From assembly GCA_963666485.2 (NCBI GenBank), contig CAXXUO010000001.1:32001-96000 (forward strand): a stretch of 64,000 bases of DNA, in the 5' to 3' direction. Under the pieces are notes generated by a model. It did not search any database. It was not told where the DNA came from and was given only the letters and a program-made list of their open reading frames with translations. Made by a program: the position numbers and the translations under genes. Shown piece by piece: positions 12,663 through 61,400 of the stretch. This DNA comes from Syntrophorhabdaceae bacterium. GTDB taxonomy: Bacteria; Desulfobacterota; Syntrophorhabdia; Syntrophorhabdales; Syntrophorhabdaceae. Each line of letters starts with the position of its first letter. The stretch's first letter is position 1.

Positions 12663-13084
12663 GGCTGGGCCGGCCTTCTTGTTACGATGGTTGAAATCGT
12701 ATAATCACTCAAGAGACGAGAATACCTGACAGTCACCGTGATCTTTTTATAATAGTTGCTCGTCGGGGATTTCGTGCTCAGATCGAAGGGGTTGATCGAT
12801 TCAATAATGCACCCGGTCGTATACCCGTCGTCGGGGGATGATTCAGCCGTAAAGACAGCGGGAGTGGAACATGACAAGCCTGCCGCGGTAATATTATCGT
12901 ATGAATTGCCCGTAATCTCCGCCATTCTCTTATCGGCATAGAACTTGGCTTTGACGTAATAATCCGGTCTTGAATAATTGCTCATGACGCTTGTAAAAGC
13001 GATCATGGAGGCGGGCAGAAAAATTGCACCGATTATGATGAACATAATAAGTTCGATCAGAGTAAACCCTTTCTTATTCATCAC
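12659..13084 (-). CDS. Minor pilin (MshD/PilV-like)
   Basis: KKG|FTLIEL; C-terminal KKITVTV. Confidence 0.87.
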   Translation of the reverse strand: MMNKKGFTLIELIMFIIIGAIFLPASMIAFTSVMSNYSRPDYYVKAKFYADKRMAEITGNSYDNITAAGLSCSTPAVFTAESSPDDGYTTGCIIESINPFDLSTKSPTSNYYKKITVTVRYSRLLSDYTISTIVTRRPAQP

Positions 13085-13479
13085 TGGATTTCCGCTCTCC
13101 CTGTCGAAGCATAAATTCTAACCGTTTGACCTCCTGACAGGTTTATTGTCCCGGCCACATCCGGTTCCCCCATCGAATTGTATGTCACCGGGCCGCTAAA
13201 ACTTGTTCCTGTTATTGTTACTGTGCCCGGCAATCTCTTTTGCACCCCTGCCACCCTGTATAACCCATAATCACCTGCATTGATCCTGAATGCTATGTTC
13301 TGGGACTGTCGTAGCCCCATGGCTCTCATTTGGACATACTGGATATCCGCTACAAGTTGACCGGCAGCTATAGAACTATAATCGCTTATCGAGAAAGGGT
13401 TTTTCAGCATGATGGCCCCAACAAGCAAGCCCAATACGACAATAACAACTACAAGTTCTATTGATGTAAAGCCTTTCAT
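13081..13479 (-). CDS. Minor pilin (MshC/FimT/GspH-like); start set at ATG 13479
   Basis: MKG|FTSIELVVVIVVLG, ADIQYVQMRAM, TYNSMGEP; the longer 13578 start reads through a palindromic repeat. Confidence 0.82.
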   Translation of the reverse strand: MKGFTSIELVVVIVVLGLLVGAIMLKNPFSISDYSSIAAGQLVADIQYVQMRAMGLRQSQNIAFRINAGDYGLYRVAGVQKRLPGTVTITGTSFSGPVTYNSMGEPDVAGTINLSGGQTVRIYASTGRAEIQ

Positions 13480-13529
13480 CGTACGATAGTTTTTCACAGA
13501 CTGTCGCATAAATGCATGAAACCAAAACC

Positions 13530-13557
13530 CTGGATTCCGGCCTTCGCCGGAATGACG
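13530..13557. repeat. Solo CGTC-type palindromic (REP-like) repeat
   Basis: ctggattccggccttcgccggaatgacg, identical to copies at 45418, 45518 and 45618. Confidence 0.9.
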
Positions 13558-13601
13558 AGAATGAACACTAGTTCTCATTTATTATATTTTTGCCTCACCT
13601 G

Positions 13602-14282: not shown

Positions 14283-14351
14283 AGTCTCCCCTGCCGCCTA
14301 ACTAACCGTAATGTTATATGGATGGGGGTAAAAAGGCAAGAATGAAAAAAC

Positions 14352-14460
14352 GGGCGGTGGGCGATGGGCGATGGGCGATGGGGAAAATACCGCATTTACC
14401 TATTGCCTATGTCCGTTCATTTCCGTTACCTATCGCCTATTGCCCATTGCCTATTGCCTA
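14352..14460. repeat. Inverted heptamer tandem repeats (gggcgat)n...(attgcc[c/t])n
   Basis: Seen directly between divergent GT2 and ExeA genes. Confidence 0.8.
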
Positions 14461-14489
14461 TTATTTCCATTTATGCCATAGTCTAAAAA

Positions 14490-32737: not shown

Positions 32738-35524
32738 CTAGAATTTGAACTGTAATCCCACCATGCCCGAATGCTGCGTCGTGTCACCGGAGAAATAACC
32801 GTCATACGAGAGATTGATGTACAGGTGGTCCTTTGTCTTCAAGGTGATGCCAACCCCTGCTGCGAGCCTGTCACGATCGGGCCTGTCAGCATTCACGCTG
32901 AACGCGGTCTGGGGATACCCCGTGAAGGACGCCCTCAGGGAATGATTGTCATTCGAGAACTCGTGGTCCCAGCGAACCCTGAGTTCGGGACTCAAGGTGC
33001 CGGCAGGGATCGTGTAATCCTTTCTGAGACGAACTCCGAGAGACGCCAGGTACGATGTCGTGGTCTCCTTGTCGGCGTCAAGGCTCAATGCCCCGGCACC
33101 GTCCTCACTGAAGCTGCCGCGGGTAAGGTAGGTTGCCTGAAAAGCCGCGAACGGAATAATGTCGGCATACCGCGTCACGAGCTTGTACCCGCCTTCCAGG
33201 TAGCCGGCGAAGAGGTGGCTGTTGTAGGACGCGTTCGCCGTACGCGCGATCGTCCCGAACGCCATGTCGCGCGACGTATCGTAGGTATTGTAGGAATATG
33301 AACCGATGCCGCCGGCATACCAGGGGCCTTTTGTATAGATGCCGTAGAGCGATCCCTGGTAGCTCGACATCCGTGCATCCTCGGAGAGGCCCTTGAGGTC
33401 CACCTTGCTGTATGCGTAGCCGACAGATGCACCGAGAAGCAACGAAGAGGTGATCTTCTTGTCGAAACCGAAGACGGCGCCTGCCGTGCTTGAATCATAC
33501 CGGGATGATATGTCGGTGGCGCGCCTCTCGCCCAGGCTTCCATAGGTATCTATCCAGAATCCCCAGGCGGGTGTGCCGGTGCCCGGCGTGGTGTTGTTCG
33601 CCGCCGCGAGGAGCCTCGTCTGTGCATCACTGCCTGTATCGCTCAGCGACGCGGTGAGAACGGGCTTTACGGCCAGCATGGCCGAAGGGCCGCCCGATAC
33701 GAAGCCTGCCATCCTCCTCGCCATCATGTCCCTGTACTGGTTGTACGACGAGAACGTGACGGCGGGCATGGCTGTATGAATGTAGCCGCCCATCTGGTCG
33801 TAGGCGTTGAGGGCCTGAGGTGCATTCATGGCGAGGACCATGTCGATGATGTTCCGCATGTCGCCCGTGGCGATGGCATACCCGCCTTCAAGCCCGCCGG
33901 CGACCGCGCACTGGTTCTCCGTCTCGCACACGGATTGGAGGGATTTACGGGTGAACGTGAGATCGACCGCCGTGGGCAGGTAGGTGAGATATGTGTCCGC
34001 CAGGAATGCAGACGTGTTCGTGAGGTTCGCGAATGCCCCGGTGACTCCCCCTGCGGCGGTGAGGATGGTGTACGTATATGGTTTGTTTGCCACGAAAAGG
34101 CCCGTCGGAAGGAGCTGGACCGTACCTCCTTTCAATGTGGCCATACCGGTGACCACCAGCCTGTCCGCCTGTGTCGGGCTCAACTCGACCTGCAGCGTGC
34201 TCCCGGGGTTCTGTGTGTAATTGCCGGCGATCGTGAGTGTCCCGATGGAATTGCCCGCGGCGACGGTGCCGTTGTTCTGCACGTTGTTGCCGGTATCCCC
34301 GGAGCCCGTGAAGAGCCCGTTATTGACAATGGTGCCTCCGCCGGCGATCGTCCCGTTATTGACAAGTGTGCCGGCATTGATCAGGGTCCCGCTGTTCGTC
34401 TGCGTATGGCCCGTGGGGTTCGTGAGCCTCGCATTGTTCTGCAGCGTGCCTCCGGCGTTCAGGTTCATGGTCCCGCCCGTTGCGCCGTCAAAGGTGAAGT
34501 CCCGACTCAGCACGAGTGTGCCGCCGTTGTTGTTATTGAATGTTCCGCCGGCGAAGTTGTAAGTGCTCCCCGCGGCGAGTTCCACTGTGCCCGCATTGTT
34601 GAACGTGCCGGCGTTGTTCAGGGTGCCGGTATTGATCAGGGTGCCGGAGTTATTGACGGTGGCGTTGTTCGTGAGCGTCCCCGAGTTATTGAAAGCGGCC
34701 CCGCCCTGGTTGGTAATTATGCCGAGGTTGTTTATCGTTCCCGCATTGTAGAAGGCGCCTCCGGCCTGGTTCCGGAGATTCATGCCGCTGCCGTTGTCGA
34801 TCACCCCCGGGGCGTTGTTGTAAAATGCCCCTTCATTCTGGATGCCATGGGTTGAACCAAACCATTGCTCTGTCGTCATGTAGCCGCTGTTACGGAAGAC
34901 GCCCCCCGCGTAATTCAGGATAATGCCGCTGTGATGTATCCAGCGGGCATTGTTCACGGTTTCGCCGTAATTGTAAAATACCCATCCGTCGTACGTGCCG
35001 TTGTTTATAAAAGAGGCGCCGCCTCTTACATAGGTGGTCGTTCCGTTCAAATAATACCCTCCGGCTTGATTGACGATGAGGCCGTAGTTGTCAACTATAC
35101 CCGCATTGTTGAAGGTCCCCGCATTGTTGAAGGTGGCGCCGGCCGCGTTATTGAAGCGGCCGTTGCCGTCGTCCATCGTTGCGCCGGCATTGTTATTCAC
35201 GACGGCTCCCGGGTTGTTGTTAAAGCGGATAAACTGGATAATATCGGTTACCGTCCCATTGTTGTTAAAGACGGCGTTGTTGTTAAAACTTCCCCACAAT
35301 TGCACGGTCCCGTTATTCGTGAAATCGATAGCATTATGACTTGTGACGGCCGGGGGATTATTGATATCTATGGGAGTGTCGATCACATTGCCGGCGGGGT
35401 TCGGGTTGGGCCCTATCTGGACAGATTGGGCGTGTAAGGCGAATATCGACGCAAAGAGCATCATACCTGCGAAAATACTGACCAGGGCAATTCTTGCCAG
35501 GCCGGCCATGTGCAACGTTTTCAT
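32738..35524 (-). CDS. Autotransporter (type Va) 2
   Basis: Signal peptide ending ALHA|Q, NNAG/NxG repeats, beta-barrel ending GLQFKF. Confidence 0.9.
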   Translation of the reverse strand: MKTLHMAGLARIALVSIFAGMMLFASIFALHAQSVQIGPNPNPAGNVIDTPIDINNPPAVTSHNAIDFTNNGTVQLWGSFNNNAVFNNNGTVTDIIQFIRFNNNPGAVVNNNAGATMDDGNGRFNNAAGATFNNAGTFNNAGIVDNYGLIVNQAGGYYLNGTTTYVRGGASFINNGTYDGWVFYNYGETVNNARWIHHSGIILNYAGGVFRNSGYMTTEQWFGSTHGIQNEGAFYNNAPGVIDNGSGMNLRNQAGGAFYNAGTINNLGIITNQGGAAFNNSGTLTNNATVNNSGTLINTGTLNNAGTFNNAGTVELAAGSTYNFAGGTFNNNNGGTLVLSRDFTFDGATGGTMNLNAGGTLQNNARLTNPTGHTQTNSGTLINAGTLVNNGTIAGGGTIVNNGLFTGSGDTGNNVQNNGTVAAGNSIGTLTIAGNYTQNPGSTLQVELSPTQADRLVVTGMATLKGGTVQLLPTGLFVANKPYTYTILTAAGGVTGAFANLTNTSAFLADTYLTYLPTAVDLTFTRKSLQSVCETENQCAVAGGLEGGYAIATGDMRNIIDMVLAMNAPQALNAYDQMGGYIHTAMPAVTFSSYNQYRDMMARRMAGFVSGGPSAMLAVKPVLTASLSDTGSDAQTRLLAAANNTTPGTGTPAWGFWIDTYGSLGERRATDISSRYDSSTAGAVFGFDKKITSSLLLGASVGYAYSKVDLKGLSEDARMSSYQGSLYGIYTKGPWYAGGIGSYSYNTYDTSRDMAFGTIARTANASYNSHLFAGYLEGGYKLVTRYADIIPFAAFQATYLTRGSFSEDGAGALSLDADKETTTSYLASLGVRLRKDYTIPAGTLSPELRVRWDHEFSNDNHSLRASFTGYPQTAFSVNADRPDRDRLAAGVGITLKTKDHLYINLSYDGYFSGDTTQHSGMVGLQFKF

Positions 35525-43600: not shown

Positions 43601-45102
43601 CACGGACACATGAACCGATATTCCGCTCTCTCATCCGGGACGCGGGGCTCAACAAGTATCTTTTCGAGATGGCGAACATCAGGGACCAGTGCTCATGGGT
43701 CCACATGCATGACAGGAACGAGGCAACCCTGAAGGCGAAGGACCTCGTCCGGATGGCCGTCGCGAATGCGCATCACATAGAGCCGCTCGTCGAGAAGACA
43801 CTGCCGGTCGAAAAGTCTGCGCTCGTGGTCGGCGGCGGGATCGCGGGAATGACGGCGGCCCTGAGCATTGCAGACCAGGGATTTCCCGTGCATCTTGTCG
43901 AGAAGGAGGGACGGCTCGGCGGCAACCTCAATAATATCTTCACGATCGTGGACGCCGTCGATGTGCAGGAGTTTCTCGGGGACACCATCCGGAAGGTAAC
44001 CTCGCACATGAACATTAAAGTCCACATGGATACGGAGGTCATAGGTTCCGGGGGATTCCGGGGAAACTTCCAGACCGAGGTCATGACCAGAGGCCGGTCG
44101 GCGCCGGAAGAGATCAGGCACGCGGTCACGATACTTGCAACCGGTGCATCGGAGATGAAACCCGACGGCCTCTATCTCTACGGCAAGGATGACCGGGTGA
44201 TGACGCAGCTTCAGCTTGAAGCGGGCTTAACCGCCGGTACACTTCCCGAACCGGGTGTCTGCGTGATGATCCAGTGCGTCGGTTCGCGCAGCGAACAGAG
44301 GCAGTACTGCAGCCGGGTCTGCTGCATCACCGCGATCAAGAACGCAATGACGATGAAACTCAGATGGCCGGACACGCAGATCATTATCATGTTCCGCGAC
44401 ATGATGAGCTACGGCTTTTCCGAGAAATATTACAAGGCGGCGCGCCATATGGGCATACGCTTCCTCCGCTTTTCCGATGACAACCCGCCTGCCGTAGAGA
44501 AAAGGGACGACAGGGTCCAGGTGCGCTGTTTCGATACGGCATTGCGTGAAACGGCTGAATTCCGTGCGGACAGGGTTGTGCTCTCGAGTGCCGTGGTGCC
44601 GAACGACACGGCCGGCCTTGCAGGCATATTCAAGCTTCCCCGGACCCGCGACGGGTTCTTTCACGAAGCGCATATGAAGCTGAAGCCGATCGATTTCGCA
44701 ACCGACGGGTTTTACATGGCAGGAACGTGCCACGCGCCGAAAAATATCAGCGAGACGATAGTGCAGGCTTTAGGCGCGGCAGGCAGGGCGCTGACAACCC
44801 TCGCCAGGGACTCGATAACCGTTGATGCCATGATTGCAAGGGTAGATGCCGACGCATGTGCAGCATGCCTGACCTGCGTGAGGACATGCCCGTTCGGCGT
44901 GCCTTTCATAAATGACGAAGGAAGCGCGGAGATAGACGCGAGCAAATGCAAGGGCTGCGGCACGTGCGCAGCCGAATGTCCCGCGAAAGCGATAGATTTA
45001 ATGCATTCAAGGGATGTGCAGATATTGGCGAAGGTAAAAGTGGCGGTGCGGAAGCAAAATATTGACGTCATCCCGGCGAAGGCCGGGATCCAGGAAAAAT
45101 GA
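40585..45102 (+). CDS. hdrA: Large HdrA/HdrL: duplicated HdrA modules with an inserted GltD-like pyridine-nucleotide module (start uncertain)
   Basis: GAGIAG, FPTNDCSMC, GRICAHPCE, GAGPAG, GGGNVA, IQCVGSR x2, ANIRDQCSWVH, GGGIAG, C-terminal 2x[4Fe-4S]. Confidence 0.92.
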   Translation: MPGTTTATPGTGGKRLIDSGSNNAPGQSGAILIIGAGIAGMEAALNCVGAGFKVYLADRKPNIGGNMAQLDKIFPTNDCSMCVMAPKLVEVGKNPNIELLMNSEVFRLEGEPGHFRATLRTRPRRVVPERCTSCTSCSAACPLEVGNVYNEEMSLRSAAFINFPQAIPSTYMIDRQLSPCIYTCPINLNARDYIGLIAEGKFFEALDLVRDKLPFPGIIGRICAHPCENACLRGKEVDQPIAICALKRFLADYEIGRREPLLPAIAPEKNKTAAVIGAGPAGLTCAVELRKAGYRVTIFDANEQPGGMLYAGVPAYRLPRDVLAREFSLAGRMGVELRMNTRIGRDVPLADVLDSFDSAFIASGAHGRRKLGLLNEDAHGVLSALDFLKDINTGKDVTLGKRAFVVGGGNVAMDTAITLRRLGVPDVHIVALEKWEDMPAHRWEIDQAIEESIVFHNAWGPLTILARDGRVTGMELARCTRVFNSKGAFDPVYDTSNTVTFDMDMLILVIYETIDTAYLSASPTIERHEDGRVKVDPVSLETTHTGVFAGGNAVTGPRSAIDAMAQGKRAAESMVRFLEGRDLLEGRLAEDDKILDEVPFPVEHAVRANIPRTAIADRTGFLETVGTLDEKSAVEEAKRCLSCRRCLGCGICEEFCKPEAIDYNEGPAERVLDIGSIIIACGFDEFDSAAMKEFGYHAFDNVLSSVDYERVLSATGPTGALVMRPSDGRIPRKIAFIQCVGSRNKENPYCSSICCMFAMEEAIISKEHHRDIEPTIFYMDTRTFGKGYDEHYERARSEYGVRYIRSAISKIYEDPGTKDLDITYTSPDGALVTETFDLVVLAVGLRPSKQLGGLTRIMSVESNDYGFVGTEPLTPLAASRPGIYVCGGSAAPRDISETVVEGSAAACQAASPLSGERWKNITVPSLPDERDITGQDPRIGVFICNCGVNIGGIVDVPAVRDYASELPDVAFAEQFLFTCSQDTQEKIKNIIHEQKLNRVIVASCSTRTHEPIFRSLIRDAGLNKYLFEMANIRDQCSWVHMHDRNEATLKAKDLVRMAVANAHHIEPLVEKTLPVEKSALVVGGGIAGMTAALSIADQGFPVHLVEKEGRLGGNLNNIFTIVDAVDVQEFLGDTIRKVTSHMNIKVHMDTEVIGSGGFRGNFQTEVMTRGRSAPEEIRHAVTILATGASEMKPDGLYLYGKDDRVMTQLQLEAGLTAGTLPEPGVCVMIQCVGSRSEQRQYCSRVCCITAIKNAMTMKLRWPDTQIIIMFRDMMSYGFSEKYYKAARHMGIRFLRFSDDNPPAVEKRDDRVQVRCFDTALRETAEFRADRVVLSSAVVPNDTAGLAGIFKLPRTRDGFFHEAHMKLKPIDFATDGFYMAGTCHAPKNISETIVQALGAAGRALTTLARDSITVDAMIARVDADACAACLTCVRTCPFGVPFINDEGSAEIDASKCKGCGTCAAECPAKAIDLMHSRDVQILAKVKVAVRKQNIDVIPAKAGIQEK
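45066..45093. repeat. Left CGTC-type palindrome flanking the GIY-YIG gene
   Basis: cgtcatcccggcgaaggccgggatccag; 26/28 to the reverse complement of 45418-45445. Confidence 0.88.
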
Positions 45103-45398
45103 TGAGTAGCAAACAACCATCTGTATACATACTGGCAAGTGGAAAAAATGGGACTCTTTATATTGGCGTAACATCCGATTTAATTAAACGGGTCTGGGAA
45201 CATAAAAATGATGTAGTCGAAGGCTTCACAAAAAAATATCAGGTACATTATCTTGTCCGGTATGAAGTGCACGACAATATGGAATCTGCAATTTCGCGTG
45301 AAAAAGCGATAAAAGAATGGAAAAGACTTTGGAAACTGAGAATCATCGAAAAAGACAATCCGAAATGGAGAGATTTGTACGAGAAATTGTTAGGTTAA
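45099..45398 (+). CDS. Small GIY-YIG endonuclease (YhbQ/UPF0213-like)
   Basis: VYILAS..GTLYIGVTSDLIKRVWEHK, AISREKAIKEWKR.WK, NPKWRDL; visibly AT-rich. Confidence 0.92.
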   Translation: MMSSKQPSVYILASGKNGTLYIGVTSDLIKRVWEHKNDVVEGFTKKYQVHYLVRYEVHDNMESAISREKAIKEWKRLWKLRIIEKDNPKWRDLYEKLLG

Positions 45399-45655
45399 GA
45401 GGTAAATTACGGTTTTACTGGATTCCGGCCTTCGCCGGAATGACGTTGGTGGAGGCAATCCGGGATGGAGAGATTTGTACGAGAAATTGTTAGGTTAAGA
45501 GGTAAATTACGGTTTTACTGGATTCCGGCCTTCGCCGGAATGACGTTGGTGGAGGCAATCCGGAATGGAGAGATTTGTACGAGAAATTGTTAGGCTTATA
45601 GGTAAATTACGGTTTTACTGGATTCCGGCCTTCGCCGGAATGACGTCGGTGGAGA
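45356..45655 (+). repeat. Three tandem 100-bp units (GIY-YIG 3' end plus palindrome)
   Basis: Units start at 45356, 45456 and 45556; each holds ctggattccggccttcgccggaatgacg. Confidence 0.92.
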
Positions 45656-45688
45656 CTGCCGGAATGACATTGGTGGAGGGTTGTTGAG

Positions 45689-46111
45689 TTGGATAATTTT
45701 ACACCCCAGATAATCGCTTTTTGTTGCGAATACTGAGGGTACTCTGCGGCGGACCTGGCAGGTTCGATGAGGCTTTCCTATCCGGCATCGGTGAAGATCA
45801 TTAAGGTGCCGTGCACGGGCAGGGTAGATACGATCCATATACTCGAGGCCTTCGAAAACGGGGCGGACGGGGTGTGCCTCGTGGGGTGCCTCGAAGGCGA
45901 CTGCCATTTCATCGCGGGGAACATCCGGGCGGGAAAACGCGTTGAGTATGCGAGGGCCCTTCTCGATGAAACGGGCGTGGGAGCCGGGCGCCTCGCAATG
46001 TACAACCTTTCCGCATCCGACGGCCGCAAATTCGCCCGGGTGATGCGGGAAATGACGGAGAAGATACGGGAGATGGGGGAAAGTCCCATAAAAGCGGGCG
46101 ATAGGCGATAG
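45689..46111 (+). CDS. mvhD: MvhD/FlxD [2Fe-2S] protein, probable selenoprotein (UGA at 45734)
   Basis: TTG start after GGAGG; MDNFTPQIIAFCCEY-U-GYSAADLAGSMRLSYP..VPCTGR..GADG..GCLEGDCHF; hairpin 45750-45766. Confidence 0.88.
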
Positions 46112-46188
46112 GCGATGGGCGATAGGAAAGATACTGACCGGATCTTTCACTGCGAAGCCCATTGCCCATTGCCCATTTCCCATTGCCT
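46096..46188. repeat. Inverted heptamer repeats ([a/g]ggcgat)n...(cccattg)n
   Basis: Overlaps the mvhD stop codon and abuts the metV RBS. Confidence 0.8.
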
Positions 46189-56929: not shown

Positions 56930-57359
56930 CGGCGTACGGCTAACGGCGTACGGCTAACGGGAAAAGCGGGCGACCTGAAACGGCTAACGGCGTACGGCTG
57001 ACGGGAAAACCGGGCAACCTGAGACCTTCAACTATAGGCGTAAGAACGGCGTACGGCGTACGGCTGACGGGAAAACCGGGCAACCTGAGACCTTCAACTA
57101 TATATGTGTCAGGTTGTAAACGCTTTTAGTGACTTGTGCAATCTATTTTATTGTCTGCATGCGTCCCGCAAGATCGAAACCTTATACATTTACACCTCGG
57201 CTTTTCACCTTTCGCCGTGCACCTTTCTCCTTTCTCCTTTAGCCTTTAGCCTTTCGCCTTTCGCCTTTCGCCTTTCGCCTTTCGCCGTACGCCGTTAGCC
57301 GTTAGCCGTTAGCCGTTAGCCGTACGCCGTTAGCCGTACGCCGTTAGCCGTACGCCGTT
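56930..57359. repeat. Large heptamer inverted-repeat element (cggcgta/cggctaa) with a 49-bp direct repeat
   Basis: Left heptamers from 56930, right reverse-complement tract about 57284-57359, cctttcg run; direct repeats 56988-57036 and 57054-57102. Confidence 0.85.
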
Positions 57360-57361
57360 CC

Positions 57362-61210: not shown

Positions 61211-61286
61211 CCTTAAACCTCGTCATCATCCTTAAACCTCGTCGTCATCCTTAAACCTCGTCGTCATCCTTAAACCTCGTCGTCAT
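61211..61286 (+). repeat. 19-bp tandem repeat x4 (ccttaaacctcgtc[a/g]tcat)
   Basis: Starts at 61211, 61230, 61249 and 61268; runs into the palindrome arm. Confidence 0.85.
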
Positions 61287-61400
61287 CCCGGGCTTGACCC
61301 GGGACCCAAGGTTCTTCTTTTTTCAAAATAGATGCGTGAAAAACAACAACAAAAAAACAAAACCTTGGGTCCCGGCTCGGAGGCCGGGATGACGACGAGG
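61275..61400. mobile_element. Non-autonomous paired CGTC-type palindrome element (MITE/REP doublet-like)
   Basis: cctcgtcgtcatcccgggcttgacccgggacccaagg ... ccttgggtcccggctcggaggccgggatgacgacgagg around an AT-rich spacer. Confidence 0.7.

Follow-up and report, generated by a model that had tools for sequence, protein, structure and literature searches.

What kind of element is formed by a small GIY-YIG nuclease gene that lies between hdrA and mvhD and is framed by inverted hairpin repeats, and do the gene and the repeats belong together? The question is raised by a 64,000-nucleotide (nt) stretch of DNA from a Syntrophorhabdaceae bacterium (GCA_963666485.2, contig CAXXUO010000001.1), here called the window, which corresponds to C1:32001-96000 of a 3.77-Mb, 99%-complete assembly. 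An initial annotation of this stretch proposed a mobile system of nuclease and REP-type repeats and took the REP/RAYT systems, which use an HUH transposase, as its only precedent. The pairing of such an enzyme with such a repeat is not new, as it was published in 2025 as the Ssn nucleases with their SRM/NTS repeats, and the REP/RAYT-only baseline is therefore out of date. The locus is very probably an Ssn-SRM cassette, in which the gene for a GIY-YIG Ssn nuclease is flanked by inverted copies of its cognate hairpin.

The nuclease gene and its hairpins

The AT-rich gene annotated between hdrA and mvhD is real (Table 1). It is an open reading frame (ORF) of 99 amino acids (aa) with a GC content of 0.36, compared with 0.54 for the window and 0.60 for hdrA, and the sole Pfam match of its product is the GIY-YIG family PF01541 (residues 8-79, E 2.1e-12). 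Residues Y10, Y21, R31, H35 and E68, which are of catalytic type, are invariant in an alignment of 14 sequences. Y10, Y21 and E68 can tentatively be equated with Y6, Y17 and E64 of Neisseria meningitidis SsnA by a constant offset of +4 rather than by alignment. The predicted model of the protein (pLDDT 93.5) forms one compact domain whose best fold matches are the UPF0213 protein BH0048, Slx1 and the GIY-YIG domains of UvrC. BH0048 (PDB 1zg2) is the top structural match (E 8e-4) and I-TevI is only a weak one (rank 31). A sequence search of the PDB with the 99-aa protein returned no Ssn structure and a marginal match to 1zg2 (E 0.18); the WD40 proteins at the top of that search were rejected as spurious many-repeat matches. 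Group I intron endonuclease, a candidate from NCBIfam, was also rejected, its 18-26 bits lying below the cut-off of 56.

The inward-facing 28-bp repeats described in the initial annotation are present, but the arms are longer (34-35 nt) and the downstream arm occurs three times rather than once. The upstream arm (45064-45098) is 91% complementary to the three downstream copies (45413-45446, 45513-45546 and 45613-45647). In each arm an unpaired CGTCAT tag precedes a GC-rich stem of 8 bp, which is closed by a GAAG loop and followed by a CCAG tail, and the copies in the window are predicted to fold as DNA hairpins of -8.9 to -9.7 kcal/mol. A 14-nt core (at most one mismatch) occurs five times in the window compared with 0.07 times expected from shuffles. 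The purine-rich tail of the upstream SRM lies a few nucleotides before the ssn ATG. A compensatory pair had been noticed between the upstream and downstream copies, and it is confirmed as a C:G stem pair in one and a T:A pair in the other. Across the genome this position is Watson-Crick paired in 213 of 222 copies, G:T in 3 and mismatched in 6.

The downstream copies belong to a tandem triplication. Its 100-bp unit takes in the final ~45 nt of ssn, the spacer 3' of the gene, one SRM and 10 nt of the flank beyond it. The three copies are 100, 97 and 94% alike and are followed by a 24-nt partial copy at 45658-45679. Short-read contigs from one sample, probably the source of the assembly, match 44800-45393 and 45617-45900 with 0 differences; they break inside the 100-bp repeat and none spans the array. 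A further set of raw reads yielded 0 reads, and the many joints seen between contigs belong to other hairpin loci or organisms and are uninformative. The shared unitig at 45364-45444 has a depth of 12.2-13.9 compared with 3.7-8.9 in the flanks, which is consistent with several copies of the unit, although a value from the same sample is no independent proof.

Relation to the published Ssn/SRM system

Placement of the locus within the Ssn/SRM kind is supported by the fit of the repeats to the published motif and consensus and by the fold of the protein, and indirectly by the species in which its homologues are found. All five SRM copies in the window fit the published degenerate SRM motif and agree with the NTS consensus at 24-26 of 28 positions (24 of 28 against the Neisseria consensus for the upstream copy). 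The motif matches that flank ssn lie at 45066-45093 (+) and at 45418-45445, 45518-45545 and 45618-45645 (-). The protein is 61-71% identical to the products of genes in Micavibrio aeruginosavorus, Endozoicomonas ascidiicola and Dyella, and Supplementary Data 4 of PMC11893778 carries the entry "ssnA homolog present: YES" for M. aeruginosavorus, E. ascidiicola and two other Dyella species.

Chenal and coworkers (2025, Nat Commun; PMC11893778) showed that binding of the NTS by the 94-aa SsnA of N. meningitidis is confined to single-stranded DNA, that the enzyme cuts a few nucleotides upstream of the repeat, and that three further Ssn homologues bind and cut their own repeats likewise. At least one SRM motif lies near 71% of the ssn homologues in that study and 42% have motifs on both sides, while an Ssn homologue is encoded in 137 of the 169 genomes that contain over 200 motifs. 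Deletion of ssnA raised transformation 5-fold with NTS-bearing DNA. The family was delimited there by homology to SsnA (tblastn, E < 1e-10) and by CDD cd10448, and an architecture like that of an insertion sequence (IS) was raised only as a hypothesis. CGTC-tagged REPs had been defined by Di Nocera, De Gregorio and Rocco (2013, BMC Genomics; PMC3733652), who described them as repeats that "apparently lack a dedicated transposase". No follow-up showing mobility of Ssn/SRM was found in Creative Commons-licensed PMC articles or bioRxiv, a search that did not cover subscription journals.

Pairing of enzyme and hairpin within and between genomes

A protein search of the genome found only five GIY-YIG genes (six matches, two of them on a broken copy). 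Four are close paralogues that are 49-64% identical, one of which is broken, and the fifth is distant (37%). All four close paralogues are bracketed by inward-facing hairpins of one subtype each: the window gene by the GAAG-loop type, paralogues B (C3:76001) and D by CCGGG/CTTGA and paralogue C (C3:93275) by CCGG/CTTG. With about 300 hairpins in 3.77 Mb, or about one per 12.6 kb, the bracketing of all four is by this estimate not due to chance. The distant paralogue (G000 C1:543975-544214 (-), about 81 aa) has an ordinary context and no flanking hairpins, and it served as an internal negative control for the bracketing.

The ssn gene is present in 13 of 40 relatives. Judged by eye, 11 of these 13 loci are bracketed on both sides, one has a hairpin upstream only and one lies at a contig edge; three share one insertion site and the others are in different contexts. 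When one genome per species was scanned, 590 relatives came up, of which the best 80 were examined. Identity to these 80 homologues is 61-74%, and the titles of their records include Beta-, Gamma-, Alpha- and Deltaproteobacteria, Planctomycetes, Chloroflexi, Patescibacteria and others. When bracketing was taken as tagged hairpins within 300 nt in the inward orientation, hairpins were found on both sides at 57 of the 80 loci, on one side at 19 and on neither at 4. The left and right stems usually match within a locus and differ between loci. The co-occurrence of this GIY-YIG clade with flanking palindromes across genomes, which the initial annotation had named as a check, is seen. Its interpretation as one cognate system with gene-bearing and gene-less members is upheld by the paralogues and the 80 loci, but mobilisation by the nuclease is a hypothesis, here as in the study of Chenal and coworkers.

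A different explanation would be that terminator-like or mRNA-stabilising REPs merely flank an unrelated small gene, since REP-type hairpins are common between genes and this genome is rich in them. The hairpins of the four paralogues are, however, of the same subtype and inward-facing within ~150 nt on both sides, and the hairpins have no T-run on the tag side and carry an oriented, conserved tag and tail. Together with the bracketing at loci in other genomes, these observations leave the explanation by chance or structure effectively refuted and vanishingly improbable.

Some relatives carry a variant cassette end. In L008, L010, L012, L014, L016 and L017 the hairpin beside ssn is split by a second hairpin of ~23 nt, inserted between the stem and the CCAGGAG tail either upstream or downstream of the gene, so that a two-hairpin end results. 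In L016 (G023:C13) ssn is followed by a hairpin in the same orientation and an apparent truncated second copy of the gene start, an arrangement that looks like another partial tandem duplication at an ssn cassette.

The hairpin family across the genome

The initial annotation had suggested a genome-wide count of the repeats, and the count comes to about 300. A search for GTCAT with a perfect hairpin after it gave 313 sites, of which 298 are family-like; five dinucleotide shuffles gave 0-6 such sites. Scanned separately, the published degenerate SRM motif matched 141 sites compared with 21-40 in ten dinucleotide shuffles. At least seven stem/loop subtypes can be told apart among the hairpins, and the largest have 54, 40, 40, 30, 34 (two loop variants pooled) and 20 copies. 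Adjacent hairpins are arranged with tags out in 87 pairs, with tags in in 10 and in the same orientation in 28, and most tags-out units span 92-196 bp. The conserved module exceeds the hairpin: a stretch of ~12 nt on the 5' side of the tag contains little G (5-13%), and the tail runs on as CCAGNGTCTTT and then into a T-rich stretch. A C is found at position -1 in 98% of copies and a (T/C)CCA tail in 81-94%.

Most doublet interiors are mutually unrelated AT-rich sequence. There were 18 interior matches among 83 pairs compared, some of them 90-100% identical. They include interiors that agree at all of 48 nt although the flanks of the loci are unrelated, which shows that entire doublets of ~118 bp have been copied elsewhere in the genome. 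The idea that doublets are internally deleted ssn cassettes was rejected as a general explanation in view of the unrelated interiors and of the protein search, which found only the five genes. A RAYT/HUH transposase was rejected as the mobiliser, because PF01797 (HUH/Y1 transposase) was not found in the 99%-complete genome, while a control search was positive in 6 of 14 reference genomes. The statement of the initial annotation that no transposase is present accordingly holds genome-wide for HUH/Y1 only, other transposase families not having been searched.

These doublets raise the alternative that ssn is a passenger. The doublets would then be old or spread by other machinery, and a free-standing homing-type GIY-YIG gene whose product cuts at doublets would have been copied into their interior, exploiting the repeats rather than mobilising them. 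Gene-bearing units share their ends with gene-less tags-out doublets, whose interior the gene fills; the 87 tags-out pairs far outnumber the four genes, and several subtypes lack a cognate gene. GIY-YIG enzymes are also classic homing endonucleases. The other mobiliser that this alternative calls for has not appeared among HUH transposases, the one kind searched for, and the hairpin subtype co-varies with the paralogue both here and across genomes, yet such co-evolution fits either model. The passenger explanation is considered unlikely.

Two further members of the family lie in the window away from ssn. The solo copy pointed out earlier (13530-13557) is indeed identical to the downstream copies at 28 of 28 positions. 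It lies directly upstream of an ATG that opens a prepilin-like N-terminus (MKGFTSIELV..., by eye), and the long ORF reported in this region (13081-13578 (-)) starts inside the repeat and is probably too long. The doublet at 61275-61400 also exists, but it is not of the hairpin subtype of the window gene; its left arm (stem CCGGG, loop CTTGA) is of the subtype of paralogues B and D, and its right arm has the stem CCGGC and the loop CTCCGA.

Table 1. Features of the ssn cassette and related repeats in the window
Feature	Position	Strand	Basis or remark
ssn-like gene, 99-aa single-domain GIY-YIG nuclease	45099-45398	+	ORF list; PF01541; fold model
Replaced hdrA C-terminal tail and stop	45061-45102	+	ORF reads through SRM; relatives compared
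Upstream SRM, C-type: CGTCAT tag, 8-bp stem, GAAG loop, CCAGGA tail	45064-45098	+	repeat search; fold -9.7 kcal/mol
Downstream SRM copy 1, T-type, inward-facing	45413-45447	-	fold -8.9 kcal/mol; 26/28 NTS consensus
Downstream SRM copy 2, T-type	45513-45547	-	repeat search, motif match
Downstream SRM copy 3, T-type	45613-45647	-	repeat search, motif match
Tandem triplication, 100-bp unit	45353-45652	+	period 100, 3.0 copies, 96% matches
24-nt stutter: 12 nt of outer SRM half (tag and 5' arm) and 12 nt of flank, duplicated once	45634-45679	+	
Solo SRM, T-type	13525-13562	-	leader region of minus-strand gene
Gene-less tags-out SRM doublet of other subtypes, AT-rich interior	61278-61400	.	
19-nt stutter array, about 4 units of 11 nt flank and CGTCATCC	61211-61286	+	tag side of the doublet's left hairpin

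Insertion between hdrA and mvhD

A search with the HdrA C-terminus covered 24 relatives and returned 24 loci, of which the 11 best loci from the same genus were examined together with the window; a locus at a contig end and loci of other genera were excluded. In all 11 congeners hdrA is followed directly by mvhD, with neither a nuclease gene nor a CGTC hairpin between them, and the spacer measures 162-359 nt compared with 706 nt here. The empty site that the initial annotation had proposed to look for at this junction is therefore found in every congener examined, and the cassette is a lineage-specific insertion in the hdrA-mvhD spacer.

The insertion reaches into hdrA. The hdrA ORF runs on into the upstream hairpin, so that its last codons, and with them its final residues, come from the hairpin sequence, and the TGA stop of hdrA overlaps the ATG of ssn as ATGA (45099-45102). 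In the closest relatives examined hdrA stops a few codons past a conserved ...KVxAA motif; here element DNA encodes the final ~14 residues of the 1505-aa HdrA-like ORF. Given the overlap of stop and start, the insertion created a translationally coupled arrangement. The cassette entered the spacer in this lineage and replaced both the spacer and the hdrA stop, and expression of ssn probably depends on hdrA through read-through and translational coupling.

On the other side of the cassette, comparison with the relatives suggests that mvhD starts here at a TTG (45689) preceded by GGTGGAGG, which also appears to be part of each 100-bp unit. The stutter copy at 45634-45679 carries the GGTGGAGG that precedes the mvhD start. 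The mvhD gene (45689-46111) contains an in-frame TGA (45734-45736) in a CCEY-TGA-GY motif that is kept here and in all 11 congeners, which points to a selenocysteine codon in this MvhD-like gene. If the TGA is read in this way, the true start of mvhD would be ~78 nt upstream of the ATG of the reported ORF.

The position behind hdrA bears on a further alternative, namely that nuclease and hairpins form a domesticated host system, as proposed for Neisseria. Such a system might, for example, restrict or trim single-stranded DNA that is taken up or recombines close to marked genes, and the repeats themselves would be static. The one role demonstrated in vivo for the family is the effect of ssnA on transformation (PMC11893778), and an operon-like position with an ATGA overlap would tie expression to a host gene. 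The distribution, however, looks selfish: the gene occurs in a minority of the 40 relatives and at different sites, one paralogue is broken and the site is empty in all congeners examined. Identity is high across record titles of several phyla, and whole doublets have been copied to unrelated sites. A domesticated system is thus a possibility to be taken seriously, but on balance a doubtful one.

Other repeats were seen in the same spacers and elsewhere in the window. Tandem units of ~7 nt are arranged as long inverted repeats in intergenic spacers of the window (56930-57360, 14346-14462 and 46090-46184). Such arrays also occur in the hdrA-mvhD spacers of relatives L021-L031, with a heptamer that differs per genome, and they constitute a second repeat system of the genus that is unrelated to the CGTC hairpins. 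A repeat with an 18-nt period in a coding-looking region (34310-35141) is probably a repeat-protein gene.

Proposed action and spread of the cassette

By homology, the 99-aa protein would most likely bind the repeat when it is single-stranded and folded into its hairpin. The stem, the CGTCAT tag and the C that follows the stem would all contribute to recognition, and the enzyme would cut the hairpin strand a short, fixed distance 5' of the tag, leaving duplex DNA and the opposite strand uncut. GIY-YIG chemistry offers no covalent intermediate for strand transfer. Because GIY-YIG enzymes only hydrolyse DNA, repair or copying provoked by nicks is favoured over transposition, and we infer that propagation occurs in this way. 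The ~60-nt hairpin modules, the ~120-bp doublets and the cassette would then more likely have spread by routes such as homing-like gene conversion or template switching than by strand transfer of the transposase type.

Several observations weigh against the identification of the locus as an Ssn-SRM cassette or against its spread as one system. Membership in Ssn is indicated by architecture and indirect links rather than by direct comparison with SsnA or CDD cd10448, and no NCBIfam model reaches its cut-off for the 99-aa protein. Replacement of the ancestral spacer and of the end of hdrA leaves neither a target-site duplication nor a precise junction to be read at hdrA-mvhD. Since most doublet interiors are unrelated, many doublets are neither simple copies of one master nor cassette deletions. 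For four abundant subtypes (54, 34, 20 and 11-15 copies) the genome contains no cognate ssn gene.

Stutter arrays on the tag side

A second kind of repetition is found next to the hairpins. A direct copy of the 11-mer formed by flank and tag lies close by on the tag side of 34 of 298 hairpins; the figures for comparison are 7 of 298 for the tail side and 19 among 3000 random positions. The period is at most 24 nt in 21 of the 34. Most share a near-constant unit of 19-20 nt in total, made up of 11-12 nt of locus-specific flank and CGTCATCC(C), which covers the tag and the first 2-3 bases of the stem, and the arrays contain 1 to 15 extra units. The window holds two such stutters (61211-61286 and 45634-45679), and the longest array adjoins the downstream hairpin of paralogue B itself. 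Short stutters occur at 20 of 149 C-type hairpins compared with 1 of 148 T-type hairpins (Fisher p 1e-5; the loci are not fully independent). In other genomes tag-side repeats were found at 19 of the 218 hairpins of the 80 loci, with periods of 8-62 nt; about half of these (8-27 nt) are short stutters, whereas the cases of 53-62 nt are whole hairpins that recur. The main texts of PMC3733652 and PMC11893778 contain no mention of stutter arrays, and no description of them was found in Creative Commons-licensed PMC articles or bioRxiv, subscription journals not being covered.

Candidate causes of the stutters are repeated nicking with fill-in, of which they would be footprints, and stalling of a polymerase at the base of the hairpin. 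That the arrays record the action of Ssn on the chromosome in vivo, as its footprints, is put forward tentatively, as a reading that is probably not correct. One paralogue specific for C-type hairpins would nick at a fixed distance 5' of the tag, and the likely enzyme would be the paralogue whose own downstream hairpin bears the longest array. Repair would duplicate the segment between the nick and the hairpin base, and the same process at a larger scale could have produced the 100-bp triplication beside the window gene. If this were true, the footprints would be the first sequence-level sign that Ssn enzymes cut their own genome and amplify adjacent DNA, and they would offer a transposase-free mechanistic route to repeat expansion.

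Significance

The Ssn/SRM system described in 2025 is extended by this locus to a free-living anaerobe that carries hdr and mvh genes. For this genome, the puzzle left in 2013 of CGTC REPs without a known enzyme is settled. Four enzyme-hairpin pairs with distinct stems, orphan subtypes, copied doublets and stutters occur together in one genome, which amounts to a natural experiment. The genome is suited to asking whether cutting of the chromosome and the spread of the repeats are the work of the Ssn nucleases themselves, and how the specificity of enzyme for site is encoded, a matter of importance for the proposed programmable cutters of single-stranded DNA.

Comparison with known systems

Miniature inverted-repeat transposable elements (MITEs) and IS transposons are marked by terminal inverted repeats, a target-site duplication and a transposase with strand-transfer chemistry. 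The element described here has inverted ends and identical doublets are dispersed in the genome; no duplication can be read at hdrA-mvhD, and the only gene is that of a hydrolytic nuclease. Homing endonucleases such as I-TevI and the Seg proteins also have a GIY-YIG domain encoded in a small, selfish-looking gene and a plausible spread by cutting and repair. Unlike those enzymes, which have a separate DNA-binding domain and cut duplex DNA, the 99-aa protein is a bare domain. Proteins of the UPF0213/YhbQ type (PDB 1zg2 BH0048 and 1ywl EF2693) are similar in size and fold; the distant GIY-YIG paralogue in this genome is of that general type and, unlike the window gene, has no flanking hairpins.

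The REP/REPIN-RAYT system (REPtron) is similar in that a small nuclease-type gene is flanked by hairpins that are abundant as gene-less inverted doublets and are recognised in single-stranded DNA. It differs in having an HUH Y1 transposase and a GTAG tag, whereas the element described here has a GIY-YIG hydrolase and a CGTC tag. The CGTC REPs described in PMC3733652 share the CGTC tag, stems of 8-9 bp that start with AT, loops of 4-5 nt, a CCA tail and a predominance of tags-out dimers, while some subtypes in this genome have loops of 6-7 nt or a CCCAAGG tail.

The closest system is Ssn/SRM itself. The main text of PMC11893778 contains no mention of tandem, paralog or multiple copies, and the locus departs from the description given there in its four paralogues with distinct cognate subtypes, its triplicated 3' end and its tag-side stutters. 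The host also differs, being a free-living, anaerobe-type genome with hdrA, mvhD and metF rather than a symbiont or pathogen. What the two have in common is a single-domain GIY-YIG protein of ~95-100 aa, a genome with hundreds of copies of the repeat, and inverted hairpins with a CGTCAT tag, a stem beginning AT(T/C)CC... and a CCAG tail.

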